64,000 nucleotides of DNA, taken from the NCBI RefSeq assembly GCF_044324785.1, contig NZ_CP172127.1; one strand, written 5' to 3'. The translations under genes and the position numbers were made by a program. How positions within the stretch are numbered: the first letter of the stretch is position 1; every line of letters starts with the position of its first letter. The notes beneath the pieces were generated by a model that saw only the letters and a program-made list of their open reading frames with translations, searched no databases and was not told the origin of the DNA. The DNA comes from Escherichia coli. Lineage in GTDB: Bacteria > Pseudomonadota > Gammaproteobacteria > Enterobacterales > Enterobacteriaceae. Below, in pieces: positions 19,998 through 44,147 of the stretch.

Positions 19998-20243
19998 TTG
20001 AGAGTTACCGGTTTTGATATGGGTGTCGAATCCTTATACAAAACACGGGTAACTCTCATGCTTCATACTACCAATCCCGTTATCAAACACAAAGCCAGTT
20101 TGCTCAATCTGGCTGAAGAACTCAGCAACGTATCAAAAGCCTGTAAAATCATGGGCGTTTCGCGTGATACGTTTTATCGTTACCGCGAACTGGCCGATGA
20201 AGGCAGGGAAAGATTACGAAAGCCCGCTCCCTGCAAGGACTGA
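19998..20243 (+). pseudogene. transposase N-terminal HTH fragment (IS481/IS3-like), truncated
   Basis: 81-aa ORF ...[34 protein letters not shown] matches the GxSRxTxYxWxxRY HTH pattern; 3' end overlaps the H-repeat transposase. Confidence 0.3.
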
Positions 20244-21287
20244 CGCCAGGTAGTTTCTGTCCATGGCTGCTTTTCGCATCTTACGTCTTAACCCTGCCTT
20301 GAATACCTTATCATTCGTTAAAATATTAATAGCGATGTGCCGTATCCCTGAAAATAATTCTGCTGCATTTCCTCTTCTTATTTTGCAGTCGTCTTCATTC
20401 ATTACCACGTCCAGACGCCAGTGCAGCTTATTCTCCACGTGCCAGTGATTTCGGATCGCTGTGGCGAACTTCTCAGCGGTTAAATCAGCAGAACTGATGT
20501 AATATCTGACCGTCATTTCTGGCTCTTTCTTTTGTTCTGCTATTATGGACCGAAAGGAGACTGCCACGCATAATTTCTTCAGTCCTTTCCATTCAAACGT
20601 GAAATCAATAAGTTCATCAGGGACATCGCAAACAATATGAAGACGGATTTCTTCTCTGCCTTGACTTTTTTCACTAATTGCGTAACTGTCATGCTCTGGA
20701 TTATTTAATTCTTTCAGTGGGAATTTTTCCTCAAAGGCTTTATTAAGCCGCCCCTGATTTCCTTTTACAGCGAATAAATAATCACCGCCCTGTTTTTGTA
20801 TCTTCTCTGCGATATCTTTCTGGCAACCCATCGCATCAGTTGTGATAATTTTTCCTTTAATATCCAGCATGTTAAGAAGTTCAGGGATAGCTGTGATCTC
20901 ATTGGATTTCTTATCCGTCCTGATCTGTCCGATGACAAGACTGTGCATTGTTGAGAACGCACTAATGACATGAATCGCTCCCCTGCGGCGACTCTTGTCA
21001 TAAGAATGCCGGAGCGTTTTTCCATCAATTGCAATAACGTCTTTATCATCTGAAGAATGGCAGTCACGCATCCCGTTAATAAAGCACTCGTGAAATTTTA
21101 CAGGACTGATACAGGATACAACTCTGGCAATGGTATCGTGAACAGGAATACCATTTTCAAAATCACCATATTGCTTCAAAAAATCGAGATGTGTTTCCCC
21201 AAAATCCTCTATATCTTCCCAGCATTCTGCACCAGAAATAACGGCACAAATAGTCAACAGTAGAATATCCGACAATTTATGTTCCAC
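20214..21287 (-). CDS. ISAs1-family (H-repeat-associated) transposase; frame extends to ATG at 21350 but is interrupted by an in-frame TAG at 21291..21293
   Basis: 357-aa ORF (V/M)[35 protein letters not shown]... typical of Rhs-linked H-rpt ORF-H; upstream in-frame MELKKLMEHISIIPDYRQA-TAG-K. Confidence 0.8.
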
Positions 21288-21630
21288 TTTCTAGGCTTGT
21301 CTGTAATCGGGGATAATAGAAATATGTTCCATCAATTTTTTCAGTTCCATTTTGTTCTCCTTAATTATGTAAGGAGTATTTGATCATGTATACGCAATAA
21401 AAAACAGCTTTAGGTAATAAGGAATATCTCAATTTTTAAACATAAAATGCGAATTATTTAGTACAAAAAGTGAACTTCTGATGATCTTTCCCTGCCCATT
21501 GGGTTCATTAAGATCAAGAATAATGGGAATATGCTCAAGAAGACTTTGAATGTTCACCAGACGTCCTTTTCTAATATATTTAATTATTTGGCGATTAAAT
21601 TTTAATCAAATCAACAAGGTAAAACCAAGA

Positions 21631-21660
21631 TTAAAGTTGTGATGATAATCACAACTTTAA
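21631..21660. terminator. perfect 13-bp inverted repeat (TTAAAGTTGTGAT-GATA-ATCACAACTTTAA), candidate terminator downstream of the Rhs immunity gene
   Basis: seen directly; on the minus strand it is followed by TCTTGGTTTT. Confidence 0.4.
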
Positions 21661-21696
21661 TGATCTTCCCCTGATTCCTCCAGTCCTTTTATTTGG

Positions 21697-22071
21697 TTAC
21701 TCTAATGGTTTTATTAATTGTAAATTTTTAAATGTCATGCTTAATAAGCCATCAGAAAAATAAAGAAAAAATTTATATATCCTTTTGTTTTTTAATTTCT
21801 TTATATACCCATTACTTATATTACCTGACTTGTGATTATCGATTAACTCAGCAGAATCCATAGCGAACACTAAATCATCTACATCAGAAAATTCAACTAT
21901 CATTTTTTCCCTAATGTTCTCATTTTTATAAATGTCAATAAATAACGTCATGTTAAAATGAGATTCTTTGAATGTCGTTTTTACTTCTAACAAAACCCCA
22001 TCATGCCAGTCAATTGAACTCACAATGTCAAAATCGCTCATTATATAATCTCCATTATCCGTTTTAATCAT
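21697..22071 (-). CDS. ydcD: Rhs-associated immunity protein (YdcD-like), about 124 aa
   Basis: [31 protein letters not shown]...; ATG (22071..22069) overlaps the Rhs stop TGA (22070..22068) as ATGA; no signal peptide; AT-rich. Confidence 0.7.
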
Positions 22072-25000
22072 GGAGTAACAACGTTTGCAGGTATTGACCA
22101 CCAAAGAGGTGGTGCAAGTGAAGGTATAAATCGAATCACTCTATATATAACATACCCTGCGCCAATTGTAGCACCAGTTGCAAGAGCCGCATCAGTAGTT
22201 GATAGCCCGGAGGTTTTGCATGACAGATCTTTACTTGGTTCTGGCTCGAAACCATATTTTTTTGCACATTTCTTAATGCTATTTGGTGCTGATGAGTAAT
22301 CCTCACCATGGGACATACCTCCAAATTCCCCCATTACACCACTCCCATTTTTACACTCCCAATGCAAATGTCTTCCGTCACCAACAGCATCGCCATCTAT
22401 TCGGATTCGACAACCTTTACCACAGTCCTTCCATTTTCCTGAAGTATGAGCTAATCCCAATGGATCAATCCATTGCACAGGATTGTTCATAACATAACTG
22501 TACGGGTTTATTCCCCCCGCCAGCCCTATCGGATCCTGGATGATATACCGCCCCTGCAACGGATCGTAGTACCGGTGACGGTTATAATACAGCCCCGACT
22601 CCTCATCGTGTTGCTGCCCAGGCAGACGGTAGGGCTGGTGCAGGTGATGCGGGTTTTCCTCATTCAGCAGGTTTCCCCACTCATCATACTCCCCGCTCCA
22701 CGCCGTATTGCCGTCTTCGCTGATGAGCGCCAGCGGCAGGCCCCGGTGGTCGCAGTGGTAAAGATGAACTTTTCGCGCCGGTGTGTATTCCGGCTCCACC
22801 TGTCTGGCCAGTTGCTCTACCGTCAGCCCGCACTGCGCAAGCCACGCCCGGCTTTCACTGCTCACGCGGTCTGCCCGGATTTCCCCCTCCAGCCTGTCCA
22901 GCATCCTCACAAGTTCTGCCGGGAACACCACACCGTGTCCGTTCTCGCTCCCTTCCTGCTGCAACTTCTCCGCCAGGCTCCGCCGCTGCGTTTTCTCCCG
23001 CTCGCCGTTGTCTGTTTCGATGCGGATGAGTGGTGTGAAGCTTCCCGGCTCGTATACCGTCTGGATACGTGTGCTGTCGGTCTGCACCGTCGTCAGGTGG
23101 TCGCCGTCCCAGCCGTACCACGTCACCTCCGGTTTACGCGACAGCGACATCCACCCCGTCAGGTCACGTACCCGCCGCCACACCCGTTTACCCGTCCGGC
23201 GGCCCAGCGGGTCGTAGAGGTAGCGGCTCTCCACCTGCGGCTCGCCATGCTGTATCCGCGTGTAGAACACCAGGCGGTGCTGGCTGTCGTAGTGGTAGTG
23301 GTGGGTCCGCTCGTCGTCCGTCCGTATCACACCCGCCGGGATGCGGTCCGTCTTCTCCGTCAGCCTGCCGTATTCATCGTGGCGGTAGACATAGTGCGCA
23401 TCCTCCGCGATGCGGTTATCCGGCCACACTGTGAGTGTACTGTCCGGGTGCAGCTCCGGGTCCGGCAGCCGGTTGCCCGCCGGGTCCGTGGCATACGGGA
23501 TGCGGATGTCCAGGTCCGGTGCGAGGGTGCGCACACTCTCCAGCCTGCCCGTGGCGCTGTAGCCGTATTCCCGCGTCTGTCGCGGGCCGCTGATGCGCAC
23601 CAGGTCGCCGTTGTCATTCCACCCGTAGTCACGGTCATACACCAGGCTGTTCAGGTGCTGGCTCTGTAACTGGCCTGCGGGGGTGTATGTGCTGGTCAGT
23701 TCGTATGCGGCATTACTGCCTGCCATGCTGCCGAAGCTGCGCACCGTCTCCCGGTGCAGCCTGTCCCGCGTATACTCGACCCGCGGCGTCCCGCCCAGCT
23801 TCATTCCCGCCAGGTAACCGCTGCCATACGTCAGCCACTCCACCGGCGGCAGGCTGTCCGGCGTGACGCGGTTTGCCAGCCCCTGCTCGTTGTATGCGTG
23901 TTTCGTCTCATGCTGCCACAGCAGTTCCCCCGTCTCCGGGTTCTCCACCGTCTGGCGTTCGCCGGTCAGGCGGCCTTTATCGTCATAGCCGTAGTGGACC
24001 GCCACACGGTGGCCTTCACTGATATGGCTGAGGGTGGTTAACCACCCGTGCTCATCATACTGCCACTGCTCTGCCGGGTCGCCGTTCACCGTCCGGTGCG
24101 TGATGCGGTCTGCTTCATCGTAGTACCACTGCGTGACCTGCCCCTCATCCTAGCTGCGGATGAGCTGCCCTGTGGCGCTGTACCGGTAACGCTGTGTCCT
24201 GCCATCAAAGCCGCGCTGCTCCGTCAGGCGGTCCAGCACATCGTAGGTAAATTCACTCCGGCTGCCGTTCTCGTTGGTCAGCACGGTGATGCGCCCGGCA
24301 GCGTCATACCCCATGCTGCGCGTCAGCCCGCCTTCCGTCACACTCACCGGACGCCCGCGTTTATCATATGCGATGGTGCTGCGTTTACCGTCCGGTGATA
24401 TCGTTGCTGTCAGGTCGCCTGCGGCACTGTACTCATAACGGGTTTCACGCCCCTGCGCATCCTTCTGCCCTGTCAGCCTGCCGCGGCTGTCATAGAGACT
24501 ATAAATACTGAGACCTTCCTCCCGGTGAACGGCGATTTGTTGACCGTACCGGTCATACTCATACCGCGTCATGTACCCCGAGCAGTCCGTGAAGGCCCGA
24601 AGCTGACCGTACCGGTTTCGCGTTATTCTCCGCGTTACCCCGATTCCGTCTTCCACCGCGCCGGGCAGGCTACTGCGGGGGGAGTCATAAAACCAGCGTG
24701 TAATGTTACCGTTGCGCGAGGTCTCTTCTGCCAGTCGGCCCTGACGGTCATATTTCCGGCTGCTGCGTAAACCATCCGGATATGTCACTGAAGTCAGTTG
24801 CAACTGGCTGTTATAGCCATACCACACCGTCCTGCCGTCCGGCAGTATCACTGAAGTCAGCTTTCCAGACGCCATATGCAGCCGGTTCACCGTCCGCCGC
24901 CCCGCCGCATCCGTCTGCGCCTTCAGCCTCCCCGCCTCATCATACTCGCTGCGGGTGATGCTCCCGTCCGCATGCTCCTTCTTCACCACCCGCTTCAGAC

Positions 25001-26242
25001 CACCTTCGCCTTCCGTGTACAGCACCTCCCGCCGGTTCAGGCTGTCCGTGATGGTCACACGGTCCTGCCCGTACTCAAAGCGGTAGTCCAGTCCCTCCTG
25101 GTTGACCTGCTCCGTCACCCGCCCGGTATCATCATACCGGTAGCGGCTCTCCGGCCTCCCTGCATAATGGCGCGCCACCATCCGCCCGGCGTGCTCCGCA
25201 TCATAAGTAAACCCGCGCACCTGCGTCCCGCTGCGGTCATACACCGCCCGCAGTTCTCCGCTGGCCGTGTACGTGTAGCGCGCCAGCGGCGCAGTCGGCT
25301 GTTCATCCGGGTATGCCGGGTCGTGTGTCAGCCACACCGCCTCCAGACGGATACCGTTATCCGTGCCGTATTCTGTACCGGCGGGCAGCGTGTCGGGGAA
25401 AGCTGAAGAAGAGGAAGCAGAACGGGGACCTGCAGGGGAAGATAAAGACGTGGCGCGCTGTTTACGGAGGGCTTCCGCCCGCTGCGCCTGTGTGGTCAGC
25501 GCCAGATGAAAACGGCGGCCCGCGCCGTCCGTCACCCCCGTCACCGCGCCCGCCGCTTCCCCCTCTGCCGCCCGGTGGAAGGCCAGCGTCCGCCCGAAGC
25601 CGTCCACCACGCCCGTCAGCACCCGGTATGCGGGCGGCTCCGGCGGCAGCACCTCGTCCGCCTCCGGCACCCGCTCCGGCCAGCCGAGTATCAGCCACTG
25701 CCCGGTTGTGCTGGCAGCCATCATATAGATGTGTGGACTCAGACGGACCGCTTCCGGCAACGCCCGCCAGAGCCGCGCAAGCGGGTGGCCTTTGTGCTGT
25801 TTCAGCACCCCGCCCCGCGCCAGCCAGAACGACTCACTGCGGCTGTAACTTATCTCGCCGGGAAACAGGGGTTCAAAGTGAATACTTCTGCCGCCACTGT
25901 CGTTGAGTATCAGGCCTTCATCGCGTATCTGTAAGCGGATATCGAAGGGGGCTTTCCAGCCGGGACCAAACACCCCACCGGCGCGGGTGTCCTGGTCCGG
26001 TAGCTGCTGTAAGCGCGAGAAAGAATAAACGGCAGCGGGCCGGGCAGCGCAAGGTCCGTCTCGCCCGGCAGCACCTTCGCACCCAGTAGCGGGTTCAGCG
26101 GGTTAGCATAGGTAATCCCTCCCGGACACACCGAGCAGGCCACTCCCGTCGGCGCACCTATCAGCCCCCCTGCTGAACCCTGCACAATATCCAGTCCCTT
26201 GCGGGTCATGTCACCCTGCCGCGCCGCCGGTTTTCCGCTCAT
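22068..26242 (-). pseudogene. rhsE: Rhs family protein, full-length copy inactivated by a 1-nt deletion (about 25968) and an in-frame TAG (24150..24152); C-terminal tail differs from the upstream Rhs
   Basis: Three collinear minus ORFs (25910..26242, 24150..25973, 22068..24089) together align along the intact Rhs at 26781..31043; core ends ...[28 protein letters not shown] then a 127-aa unique tail. Confidence 0.8.
22480..24089. repeat. Rhs core segment nearly identical to 27286..28895 (direct repeat, constant offset 4806 bp)
   Basis: Identical encoded protein over about 380 aa ([28 protein letters not shown]...KLQQEGSE) and identical antisense ORFs at 22473..23669 and 27903..28475. Confidence 0.85.
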
Positions 26243-44114: not shown

Positions 44115-44147
44115 GTACTGTCAGAGAAATCAACTCTCTGACAGTAC
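44115..44147. repeat. perfect 12-bp inverted repeat GTACTGTCAGAG / CTCTGACAGTAC with 9-nt loop, downstream of yncL
   Basis: seen directly; no flanking T-run on either strand. Confidence 0.5.

Follow-up and report, generated by a model that had tools for sequence, protein, structure and literature searches.

Two stacked ISAs1-family left ends and a palindrome with a CRP-box centre beside an Escherichia coli Rhs array

The interval that separates the H-rpt transposase pseudogene from the last gene of the Rhs array in our window (i.e., the whole stretch of Escherichia coli DNA that was analysed, 64 kb in length and corresponding to the RhsE locus) is an ordinary mobile-element relic, with one of its two insertion-sequence ends unannotated in RefSeq. 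By alignment, the 346 bp from 21351 to 21696 are the left ends of two related ISAs1-family elements, arranged head to tail on the minus strand. The whole reading, to which we assign a probability of roughly 0.6, is that of two stacked ISAs1-family left ends, the older of which carries an ISEc26-type palindrome with a CRP box at its centre that most likely binds cAMP-CRP. Two mobile-element ends, rather than a regulatory-looking spacer, would account for both the palindrome and the repeated motif that had drawn attention to this interval.

Two insertion-sequence ends in one short interval

In an identical genome (N3, NZ_CP031609.1, with the palindrome region at 3,396,250-3,396,280), the gene order is narZ...yddH, ydcC (ISAs1), a hypothetical protein, RHS, RHS and VgrG. 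The hypothetical protein (114 aa; 21697-22041, minus strand; PGAP annotation) is the last gene of the Rhs array and a presumed orphan immunity gene. The original prediction described the adjoining interval as a non-coding spacer; it does lack an intact gene, but 146 bp of it (21351-21496, minus strand) are H-rpt sequence, made up of its 5' UTR and its left terminal inverted repeat (IRL), and 178 bp belong to a truncated second insertion sequence with about 20 codons of its transposase. From the sequence and the gene coordinates, the true intergenic spacer is the 22 bp (21675-21696) between the tip of this second element and the stop codon of the upstream gene. Read away from the Rhs genes, the proposed order would be the stop codon (21697), the 22-bp spacer, the IRL of an ISEc26-subgroup element (21674-21660), the 32-bp palindrome (21661-21630), the putative promoter and UTR region of this fossil, its Shine-Dalgarno sequence and first 10-20 codons (to 21497), the H-rpt IRL (21496-21484), the H-rpt 5' UTR, and finally the H-rpt transposase pseudogene.

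The H-rpt element (20202-21496, minus strand; ISAs1 family, ISEc1/ISEc5-like) has the full length of 1295 bp and the organization known from the H-rpt of Rhs loci: a unit of ~1.29 kb with terminal inverted repeats, GGCAGGGAAAGAT, that are perfect over 13 bp (20202-20214 and 21484-21496), and a single transposase reading frame of ~378 aa. This frame (20214-21350, minus strand; 378 codons) is interrupted on translation by one in-frame TAG at 21291-21293; the PGAP annotation of the identical genome lists it as ydcC, an ISAs1 family transposase with an 'internal stop'. H-rpt sequences occupy a median of five places per E. coli genome (counted as matches to a query spanning the left end), and the copy at this locus is 96-97% identical in three other strains. 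No 8-10-bp target-site duplication is present at its flanks (...GCCGATGAA and CATTGGGTT...), so we infer that the present junction arose by deletion or recombination and not by clean insertion; because both flanks are unrelated truncated genes, the junctions appear to be secondary.

The motif TGATCTT(T/C)CCCTG, said to occur twice in the vicinity, was recovered at 21482-21494 and at 21661-21673, and a version longer by one base, ATGATCTT(T/C)CCCTG, extends over 21481-21494 and 21660-21673. The motif is the ISAs1-family terminal repeat, present once per element. Copy 1 (21481-21496, minus strand) is the H-rpt IRL, identified by its inverted-repeat match and by the family consensus; the comparison with the H-rpt terminal repeats that had been proposed as a check thus returned an intact IRL, paired perfectly over 13 bp with 20202-20214. 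Copy 2 (21660-21674, minus strand) reads TCAGGGGAAGATCAT in the sense direction and aligns with the IRL of intact ISEc26, GCAGGGCAAGATCATGAA, the right end of which is GCAGGGCAAGAGCATGAA as its reverse complement. It is alignable with the IRLs of eight ISEc26-type and five other ISAs1 left ends, and gives the second element an outer boundary of the family type (CAGGGnAAGATC..., 21674-21660). Both copies contain a GATC site, and the family-wide IRL consensus, CAGGG(A/C)AAGATC, was seen in nine elements. An extra exact ATCTTCCCCTG at 25433-25443 (minus strand), within an Rhs pseudogene, has no flanking ATG/TCAT context and is compatible with chance.

The second element (21497-21674, minus strand; recognized by homology) is covered by no annotated RefSeq feature. 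It is a fossil and not a mobile element: it retains an IRL, the palindrome, a Shine-Dalgarno sequence and the first 10-20 transposase codons, but has no right terminal repeat, the remnant ending at the H-rpt IRL (21496/21497). An element of this subgroup should have a transposase gene, with PF13808 and PF01609, starting about 115 nt inside the IRL; full-length relatives carry both domains, and here the gene is missing beyond its first codons. Among ISEc26-type elements that are intact or nearly so, the closest left end found is that of a Superficieibacter copy (88% identity to the fossil), followed by a Salmonella and a metagenome copy (80%) and E. coli ISEc26 (69%). Its transposase start (21497-21557, minus strand; VNIQSLLEHIPIILDLNEPN) begins with GTG at 21557 and, by translation and alignment, extends for ~20 codons, of which the first 10 (VNIQSLLEHI) are secure and align with VSIQSLLDYISVTPDIRQ of the K-12-type pseudogene and with other copies, codons 11-20 being weaker. 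The Shine-Dalgarno sequence AAGGA (21564-21568, minus strand) consists of invariant alignment columns within the conserved block AAAAGGACG(T/C)C. Thus the original suggestion that the palindrome belonged to the degraded end of an ISAs1-type element was right as to the family, both the palindrome and motif copy 2 lying in such an end, but the end is that of a different element, from the ISEc26 subgroup.

The same conclusion about its kinship can be drawn from K-12, where homologous DNA to the stretch 21527-21673 lies upstream of, and in the opening codons of, the yncI-type ISAs1 pseudogene (observed in a K-12-like strain), which is itself 98% identical to an 'ISEc26 family transposase'. The K-12 remnant yncI/yncO, located between ydcD and ydcC, lies in the same place and orientation as our fossil, i.e., downstream of the last RhsE-array gene and upstream of H-rpt, and shares with it and with the ISEc26 left end the type of terminal repeat, a palindrome at nt 13-44, the UTR blocks, the Shine-Dalgarno sequence and the N-terminal codons. 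The DNA identity of the fossil to these two relatives is, however, only about 69-72%, and 178 bp survive in the window as against about 1.2 kb in K-12-type strains. Most genomes with the window allele diverge at 21527. In the proposed history, an older ISEc26-subgroup element would have lost everything beyond codon ~20, and H-rpt now adjoins the break.

A palindrome at a fixed position in ISEc26-type left ends

A perfect 13-bp inverted repeat had been reported at 21631..21660. It is real, and its arms are one base pair longer: the 32-bp palindrome (21630-21661, nt 13-44 of the fossil) consists of ATTAAAGTTGTGAT (21630-21643), the loop GATA and ATCACAACTTTAAT (21648-21661), with 100% complementarity over the 14-bp arms. 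No other perfect inverted repeat of the hairpin type in the window is as long, and it folds as RNA with -16.8 kcal/mol on the plus strand (z -7.9) and -17.8 kcal/mol on the minus strand (z -5.3). When the window was simulated with a first-order Markov model, arms of 14 bp were reached just once in 60 runs. For a single palindrome of this length, chance alone is not strongly excluded; that we consider it real is due to its recurrence at the same position in diverged copies.

Every ISEc26-type left end that we recovered has the palindrome at nt 13-44, and the carriers comprise E. coli ISEc26, Salmonella, Superficieibacter and two metagenome lineages, with the pairing perfect in four of eight versions. 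Over the 14 pairs, complementarity is kept in 92.9% of cells (29-49% in slid controls), with both-side, compensatory changes at four of the pairs, and the sequence itself turns over faster than the adjacent UTR (59% vs. 82% identity between the window and Salmonella). The loci were collected by a scan for the palindrome together with the IRL, which found five loci in genome contigs, and by a palindrome-independent scan for the Shine-Dalgarno sequence and start codon, which found 47 loci in metagenome contigs. All of these fall within the same few lineages, so the covariation statistics rest on about six lineages. From these alignments, the palindrome is taken to be a built-in feature of ISEc26-type left ends.

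We rejected the possibility that a left-end hairpin is a trait of the entire ISAs1 family. The first 80 nt of 10 other left ends (from H-rpt, a Salmonella element of 65% identity, Serratia, Raoultella, Dickeya, Citrobacter, Vibrio, ISAs12, ISKpn9 and ISPa60) were folded and showed no significant structure (z -1.6 to +1.3), which makes the palindrome specific to its subgroup. In one relative from Salmonella (L064), it is the IRL that folds back on itself, in a different structure with a T run after it. A search of 20000-22300 against Rfam at E<=10 returned nothing credible: the best match over the palindrome reached 17.7 bits where the gathering score is 70 (E = 6.6), and the lowest E-value in the region, 0.005, belonged to psRNA2 at 20002-20055, whose 23 bits are likewise below its gathering score of 65.

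Intact ISEc26 (GCA_011983965.1) has terminal repeats of 18 bp, GCAGGGCAAGA(T/G)CATGAA, and its palindrome begins at nt 13 of the left end only. The structure could in principle be a subterminal site bound by the transposase, in which case the second arm would form the inner half of a long, two-part terminal repeat shared with the right end. The left end of ISEc26 can be aligned with its reverse-complemented right end over about 45 nt, with gaps, and the Salmonella right end shows, by eye, AAATCACCATTTTTC roughly as far from the tip as arm 2, AAATCACGATTTTC. But the resemblance is weak in a further element (L077; about 8/14), the right-end stretch is coding sequence and hence conserved for another reason, and only two or three elements have both ends available for comparison. 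An extended bipartite repeat is thus suggestive in ISEc26 and Salmonella and weak in the L077 element, and we set it aside; a transposase-binding role for the palindrome seems quite improbable to us.

A CRP box at the centre of the palindrome

The centre of the palindrome, TGTGATGATAATCACA (21638-21653), is a perfect TGTGA-N6-TCACA, matching the consensus core of a box for CRP, the cAMP receptor protein and regulator of sugar starvation, at 10 of 10 positions; two such matches occur in the window, against 0.03 expected. All five ISEc26-type left ends that were scored have a CRP core of 8-10/10 at nt 22-37, and the core is absent from all 10 of the other ISAs1 left ends. The box is perfect in our window, has one imperfect half-site in the K-12-type fossil, and has two in intact ISEc26. 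The inner part, GTGA-N6-TCAC, is invariant in seven of eight ISEc26-type versions (about six independent lineages, which makes for weak statistics); the degenerate ETEC fossil is the only one to have lost it. Variation is found at the outer arm positions.

The site has a counterpart in published binding data. Using SELEX-chip, Shimada et al. 2011 recovered the K-12 locus 'ydcD> >ydcC' as bound by CRP in a cAMP-dependent manner, with the box CGTGATTTACATCACA (PMC3105977 Table S3). By comparison with a K-12-like strain (L002), this box is the core of the K-12-type palindrome, and so lies at the position homologous to ours (about 1,530,490-1,530,520 in U00096.3); it was treated there as promoter-proximal for ydcC, with neither the fossil left end nor the 32-bp palindrome being noted. 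Binding of cAMP-CRP is the palindrome's most likely molecular activity, as detected only in vitro and only for the K-12 homologue, and as expected from its sequence for the window allele. The same K-12 region also scores in SELEX screens with FlhDC and with sigma-S RNA polymerase, and has been called a 'promoter island'; given its recovery in several screens, it may be merely sticky AT-rich DNA.

In a living element, a CRP dimer would be centred 28.5 bp from the tip, upstream of a weak transposase promoter, where it could plausibly tune transposase transcription or bend the element end as a host cofactor. The first of these roles would depend on spacing. From the box centre to the candidate transposase promoters is about -59, -75 or -80, the value varying with the choice of weak -10 and with the transcription start a prediction, and these values are off the standard class I and II positions (-41.5, -61.5, -71.5 and -82.5). 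No strong sense promoter was predicted in most ISEc26-type copies. The second role has a parallel in IS10, where IHF acts as a host cofactor beside the outside end: there too, a site for a DNA-bending host protein lies ~30 bp from the tip at one end only. ISEc26-type left ends would use CRP in place of IHF.

The CRP site covers only the inner ~22 bp, and compensatory changes at arm positions 2, 3 and 7 are outside of it. These outer-arm changes need another cause, either selection for an RNA or DNA hairpin or the 'correction' of quasi-palindromes by template switching. Template switching during replication is an established source of paired changes in palindromes, even without selection, and this opens the possibility that the structure is functionless, i.e., a quasi-palindrome kept perfect by this process, with a coincidental CRP match and incidental binding in vitro. 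In favour of this view, the element is dead in our window, most of the copies found are pseudogenes or fossils, and many CRP sites from SELEX have no known role. However, the position and length of the palindrome are conserved where the flanks differ by 20-30%, four versions are perfect, and the outer arms vary around an invariant GTGA/TCAC core. Moreover, the clearly degenerate ETEC fossil (L004) has lost its pairing, and thereby presents a picture of neutral decay. We regard the functionless alternative as unlikely; within the window, where the element is a fossil, any function of the palindrome may be nil, the structure being the relic of a dead element: an orphaned CRP site together with a hairpin, 35 nt beyond the last gene of the Rhs array.

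Transcription past the palindrome and the edge of the Rhs cassette

Because the arms are longer than the CRP site and their pairing has been kept, a hairpin of about -17 kcal/mol is possible in transcripts arriving from the Rhs genes. The palindrome might therefore act chiefly at the RNA level, as a terminator or insulator that protects the inside of the element from transcription originating outside, and which here ends the transcript of the last Rhs-array gene. The sense-strand hairpin (-17.8 kcal/mol) is followed on the transposase-sense strand by a conserved tail, CTTGGTTTTA (21620-21629, minus strand; family form CYTGGYTTTA), which is a candidate T tract. A simple, permissive scan scores the combination as terminator-like in the window and in another copy (L069), as it does an inner version in Salmonella, and the palindrome lies upstream of the only good sense promoter-like site, TTGAAA-16-TAAAAT of Salmonella. 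Conservation of structure through compensatory changes, with fast turnover of the sequence, is also of the type to be expected for such a barrier.

The IS200 left end provides a precedent for this layout: its inverted repeat at nt 12-34 is a terminator that shields tnpA from impinging transcription (PMC4513863). As in the ISEc26-type elements, a perfect inverted repeat begins ~12 nt inside the left tip, ahead of the point where transposase transcription starts, and is confined to the left end. IS200 is, however, a Y1-transposase element unrelated to the DDE-type ISAs1 family, and its hairpin has been shown experimentally to be a bidirectional terminator, whereas that of the window is AT-rich, is centred on a CRP box and has no T run next to the stem. 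H-rpt may offer a different solution to the same problem. Unlike the fossil left end, its left end has neither the palindrome nor the CRP box, but its 5' UTR contains a predicted hairpin, CUCCUUA-CAUAAU-UAAGGAG (21357-21376, minus strand; -8 kcal/mol, z -3.15), that would sequester the Shine-Dalgarno sequence by pairing it with an upstream anti-SD; analogous SD-containing hairpins are predicted in relatives from Dickeya and Serratia.

Several observations run counter to a barrier. Only 3 of the 14 pairs of the stem are G-C, five nucleotides (CTTGG) separate it from the T run, and the homologues are inconsistent, with the ISEc26 and Superficieibacter copies failing the terminator scan. No 3'-end entry for ydcD, yncO or yncI was found in the Term-seq supplements of three papers. 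In K-12, an opposite-strand transcript passes through the palindrome and expresses YncO, a detected small protein encoded by the outward strand of K-12-type strains; in the window, this outward frame is cut to 11 codons. Nor do G-U versus A-C mismatches favour either strand as the transcribed one, the variants splitting three (sense) to two (antisense), and we dropped this indicator as indecisive. Overall, an RNA barrier as the chief role is a minority possibility, though the one that we would weigh first among the alternatives to CRP binding. The original proposal of a terminator for the immunity gene fares similarly: the minus-strand hairpin and its tail pass the permissive scan, but the few G-C pairs, the distant T run and the homologues tell against it, such that a weak terminator hairpin, 35 nt past the stop codon of the upstream gene, is possible from the predicted fold.

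Control by antisense RNA, as by RNA-OUT of IS10 or art200 of IS200, was set aside. A promoter-like site, TTCACC-16-TATATT (21553-21580, plus strand; recognized by consensus match only), points outward through the palindrome and is antisense to the fossil transposase start; but an RNA beginning there would start upstream of the Shine-Dalgarno sequence in the sense orientation, and so leave the ribosome-binding site uncovered.

Among 5426 complete E. coli genomes, 380 conserve the sequence at this junction and 2465 more have a diverged homologue of it, so that the lack of conservation at Rhs/H-rpt junctions that would have refuted the original prediction was not seen. Identity between strains differs sharply along the locus: H-rpt is 96-97% identical, the fossil 72%, and the upstream gene is unrelated. 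At 21496/21497 it jumps from about 72% to about 96%, and this jump identifies the fossil region as the distal edge of the variable cassette. The original idea of a recombination site at the edge of the Rhs cassette was thus correct about the edge. A dedicated site-specific recombination site is not supported, however: each genome has the palindrome only once, neither a partner site nor a neighbouring recombinase gene was found, and the break in identity falls at the H-rpt IRL and not within the palindrome. An operator for FlhDC is no more convincing: a gSELEX peak near the K-12 homologue was assigned to the palindrome by MEME (PMC9962212), but its intensity of 11 is low against a cutoff of 10, and by our own count the match to the consensus is poor, at about 7 of 14 specified positions per half. 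We rejected this box as probably incidental. With the sequence already explained as part of an insertion-sequence end, we consider either role very improbable.

The boundary between the strain-variable Rhs tip cassette and its conserved flank is therefore exactly the H-rpt terminal repeat; the old insertion-sequence fossil moves with the cassette, for which H-rpt provides a shared anchor. A broader and more speculative model, which in its full form we hold to be doubtful, is that the left ends of ISEc26-subgroup elements have, 22-37 bp from the tip, a conserved cAMP-CRP site set within a hairpin-forming palindrome, through which carbon starvation would be linked to the expression of transposase or the assembly of the transpososome. 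In about half of E. coli genomes, their fossils would have left an orphan CRP site of high affinity, together with the hairpin, where Rhs/T6SS effector arrays have their distal edge. If so, the orphan site and hairpin may still influence the 3' end, or the antisense transcription, of the last immunity gene. The K-12 CRP site that has long been listed under 'ydcC' is, on the main reading, the conserved left-end palindrome of an insertion-sequence subgroup, and its identity as a CRP site hints that a global regulator of the host acts on the little-studied ISAs1 family.

Two insertion-sequence left ends at the RhsE tip

The interval at 21351-21696 consists of two insertion-sequence left ends, one of which carries the palindrome as a conserved component. 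E. coli strain N3 matches the stretch at 100% identity, and its gene order here is narU-narZHWI-yddE-nhoA-yddH, a truncated helix-turn-helix gene, ydcC (annotated as a transposase of the ISAs1 family whose frame has an internal stop), a gene for a 114-aa hypothetical protein and the RHS/VgrG end; beyond the 114-aa gene lie two RHS core pseudogenes enclosing a small gene, and then VgrG. The locus is RhsE. The minus strand carries the transposase as well as every Rhs-side gene, so the palindrome region is downstream of the last gene of the Rhs array (21697-22041, minus strand) and upstream of the H-rpt transposase.

The sequence ATCTTTCCCTGCC (21484-21496) is perfectly complementary to GGCAGGGAAAGAT (20202-20214); these are the terminal inverted repeats of H-rpt, which thus spans 20202-21496 (1295 bp) and encodes a transposase of 378 codons (21350-20214) with a single in-frame TAG. 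The original prediction took all of 21351-21696 for spacer, but the 146 bp at 21351-21496 are the 5' UTR and left end of H-rpt itself. No target duplication was found around H-rpt, whose flanks are two unrelated truncated genes. One is the helix-turn-helix gene (...KACKIMGVSRDTFYRYRELADEG; 20058-20204, plus strand), which is cut by the H-rpt right end, adjoins the right repeat at 20201/20202 and is probably the N-terminus of another IS transposase. In K-12-like strains this position holds pptA, for which the identical genome N3 has no annotation.

Within the H-rpt 5' UTR, the hairpin CUCCUUA-CAUAAU-UAAGGAG (21357-21376, minus strand; 7 bp, -8 kcal/mol, z -3.15) pairs the Shine-Dalgarno, and analogous Shine-Dalgarno-containing hairpins of different sequence are predicted in Dickeya and Serratia relatives. 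As modelled, it looks like a classic 'fold-back' guard against translating read-through transcripts. Its loop holds a promoter-like -10 (CATAAT).

The 200 bp remaining beyond the H-rpt left end are single copy; of 5426 complete E. coli genomes, 380 have them. K-12-like strains show a weaker match (~73% identical) over 'protein YncO | ISAs1 family transposase'; there, 21527-21673 aligns with the upstream region and first 30 nt of a yncI-type ISAs1 pseudogene that lies between ydcD and H-rpt in those strains and is 98% identical to 'ISEc26 family transposase'. The intact or near-intact relatives compared (E. coli ISEc26, an 83% relative from Salmonella, two metagenome lineages and a Superficieibacter copy) all share one left-end layout: the terminal repeat GCAGGGCAAGATCATGAA at the left tip (its counterpart at the right end of intact ISEc26 being GCAGGGCAAGAGCATGAA), a 32-bp palindrome starting at nt 13, a CYTGGYTTTA tail directly after it, conserved AT-rich blocks, the Shine-Dalgarno region AAAAGGACG(T/C)C, and a GTG or ATG start codon ~116 nt from the tip. 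The minus strand of the window reads TCAGGGGAAGATC-ATTAAAGTTGTGAT-TATC-ATCACAACTTTAAT-CTTGGTTTTA ... AAAAGGACGTCTGGTG-AAC-ATT-CAA..., which encodes VNIQSLLEHI.... Since both the layout and this reading match, 21497-21674, over which RefSeq has no annotation, is what survives, as a fossil, of the left end of a second ISAs1-family element. The predicted double occurrence of TGATCTT(T/C)CCCTG was borne out (21482-21494 and 21661-21673), and the second copy is the left terminal inverted repeat (IRL) of this fossil, whose tip is separated from the upstream stop codon (21697) by 22 bp (21675-21696).

Among the relatives found, the Superficieibacter copy is closest to the fossil, at 88% identity; E. 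coli ISEc26 is just 69% identical. The K-12-type homologue occurs once per genome in 2465 of the 5426 genomes; if the two sets do not overlap, it and the window allele would together be present in about half of complete E. coli genomes.

In both H-rpt and the fossil, a Dam site GATC (21483-21486 and 21662-21665) lies inside the left terminal repeat (AAGATC), and every enterobacterial ISAs1 relative in the sample has it there too (IRLs of L005, L007 and L065-L068). The right repeat has no GATC at the matching position (AAGATT in H-rpt, AAGAGC in ISEc26), an arrangement reminiscent of Dam control at the ends of IS10 and IS50.

Mosaic structure of the cassette edge

When the window was compared with three other strains, H-rpt was 96-97% identical, the fossil was 72% or 99% identical depending on the strain, and the upstream gene was either the same as the window's or unrelated. 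The identity break falls at the H-rpt IRL (21496/21497), which places the fossil in the variable Rhs-tip cassette and makes H-rpt the shared flank. Of the older element, ~1.2 kb is retained beside the H-rpt IRL in K-12-type strains and 178 bp in the window, and two further homologous loci, L003 and L004, have still other junctions. About 330 of the 380 carriers of the window-type fossil have an H-rpt junction unlike the window's (L003 3912-4000, strain UK_Dog_Liverpool), with an unrelated ~87-bp insert, bearing its own 7-bp hairpin (TGTCCAT...ATGGACA), in place of fossil codons 11-20 (window 21497-21526).

The tandem pair is evidently able to recombine: a transposase gene on a metagenome contig (P0005, 378 aa; L009) joins an ISEc26-type left end with palindrome to an H-rpt-type right end (GCAGGGCAAGATTACGAAA), and from its sequence appears to be a recombinant of tandem ISEc26-type and H-rpt elements in the K-12-type arrangement. 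Stacked ISAs1 ends also occur at another homologous locus (L077 ~1760-1900), where an intact ISEc26-type element is followed, ~80 bp past its right end, by a solo right-end remnant (TCAGGGCAAGAGCACTAATTAAATTTGTG..., reverse complement).

The palindrome and its CRP core

The original prediction was right that a perfect palindrome is present, though its arms are 14 bp rather than 13: ATTAAAGTTGTGAT at 21630-21643 and ATCACAACTTTAAT at 21648-21661, with GATA as the loop. Every other perfect hairpin-type repeat in the window is shorter, and one of 60 Markov simulations reached this length. Its RNA folds (plus strand, -16.8 kcal/mol; minus strand, -17.8 kcal/mol) lie far under those of shuffled sequence. 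Second in rank is GTACTGTCAGAGA-AATCAAC-TCTCTGACAGTAC (44115-44147; 13-bp arms, 7-nt loop), in an inter-ORF gap.

No significant left-end structure was found in 10 other ISAs1 left ends, H-rpt included, which makes the palindrome specific to the ISEc26 subgroup. Across nine versions, representing some six lineages, 92.9% of pair cells are standard (29-49% in controls that shift the partner by 1-3 columns), and four of the 14 pairs, at arm positions 2, 3, 7 and 9, have changed on both sides. Four of eight ISEc26-subgroup versions are perfect, and pairing is lost only in a clearly degenerate ETEC fossil (L004). At the same time, the palindrome turns over faster than the neighbouring UTR (59% vs. 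82% identity between the window and Salmonella). Such paired changes combined with rapid turnover point, as far as sequence comparison goes, to a constraint on self-complementarity and not on the sequence of the outer arms. A palindrome free of function is a less likely alternative; template-switching during replication can also yield paired changes in DNA palindromes without selection. The G-U versus A-C patterns did not identify a transcribed strand.

The inner five pairs, which vary only in the degenerate fossil, form with the 4-nt loop TGTGA-N6-TCACA, the core of the CRP consensus. Perfect matches number two in the window against 0.03 expected, one being that of the palindrome (21638-21653). 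All five ISEc26-type left ends scored reach 8-10 of 10 for this core at nt 22-37, and ten other ISAs1 left ends lack it. A cAMP-dependent CRP genomic-SELEX locus, 'ydcD> >ydcC', is listed for K-12 at ~1,528,520 with the box CGTGATTTACATCACA (Shimada et al. 2011, Table S3; PMC3105977). The K-12-type palindrome, read in the K-12-like strain J31 (L002), has this box at its core. The K-12 homologue binds cAMP-CRP in vitro; the window allele, with both half-sites at consensus, should bind at least as well. The other perfect match (58521-58536, TGTGATTAATTTCACA), in the gap between minus-strand ORFs 57654-58322 and 58625-59218, is likely to be a genuine CRP site for a neighbouring gene.

Other signals have been assigned to the K-12 ydcD-ydcC region, which is AT-rich and recurs in unrelated in vitro screens. 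It has an FlhDC gSELEX peak for which the MEME 'box' is the whole palindrome (PMC9962212). A sigma-S RNA polymerase gSELEX peak lies ~250 bp away, the region has been called a 'promoter island' (612 bp, H-NS-bound), and ydcD-yncO has been named an excludon from RNA-seq. The small protein YncO has been detected in K-12 by epitope tagging; in J31 its frame (61 aa; L002 4112-4297) starts at a GTG inside the palindrome and reads outward, antisense to ydcD, over the terminal repeat of the IS. The window's copy of the frame (21639-21674, plus strand) ends after 11 codons at TGA 21672-21674, and YncO is therefore allele-specific.

Possible roles in living and dead elements

A CRP dimer bound to a living ISEc26-type element would have its centre 28.5 bp inward of the tip, with the terminal repeat on one side and the weak promoter region of the transposase on the other. 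From there it might adjust transcription of the transposase gene, or else act as a host cofactor that bends the end, as IHF does beside the outside end of IS10. The transcriptional version is not well supported, since the CRP centre lies at about -59, -75 or -80 relative to the candidate promoters, none of these being a classical activation position.

The long complementary arms would also form a stable hairpin in any transcript entering from outside, and the palindrome could thus be a terminator: it is similar to the terminator that IS200 has at nt 12-34 of its left end (PMC4513863), and a simple scan scores the site as terminator-like on the minus strand. However, A-T pairs dominate the stem, the T run does not directly follow it and homologues score inconsistently, for which reasons we retain termination as a secondary or rival role. 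In a Salmonella ISAs1 element (65% protein identity; L064 ~1023-1060), it is the left terminal repeat that forms the fold-back (GGGAAAGATC-CTCT-GATCTTCCC, then GGCTTTTATTTG), which, judged by sequence, is the more convincing terminator-like structure; its tail, CC(Y)GGCTTTTA, is similar to the CYTGGYTTTA behind the ISEc26-type palindrome.

All components of the interval are of known kinds: the H-rpt of Rhs loci, a CRP box listed for K-12, and what is left of an ISEc26-type ISAs1 element whose K-12 homologue is yncI/yncO. What is new, modestly, is that a diverged IS remnant is recognised within an unannotated stretch, that the K-12 'ydcC' CRP site proves to be a palindrome conserved at the left end in one IS subgroup, and that the cassette boundary is located at the H-rpt IRL. 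The element in the window is dead and its palindrome a relic, perhaps still capable of binding CRP and of reducing the read-through that passes from the Rhs array into H-rpt.
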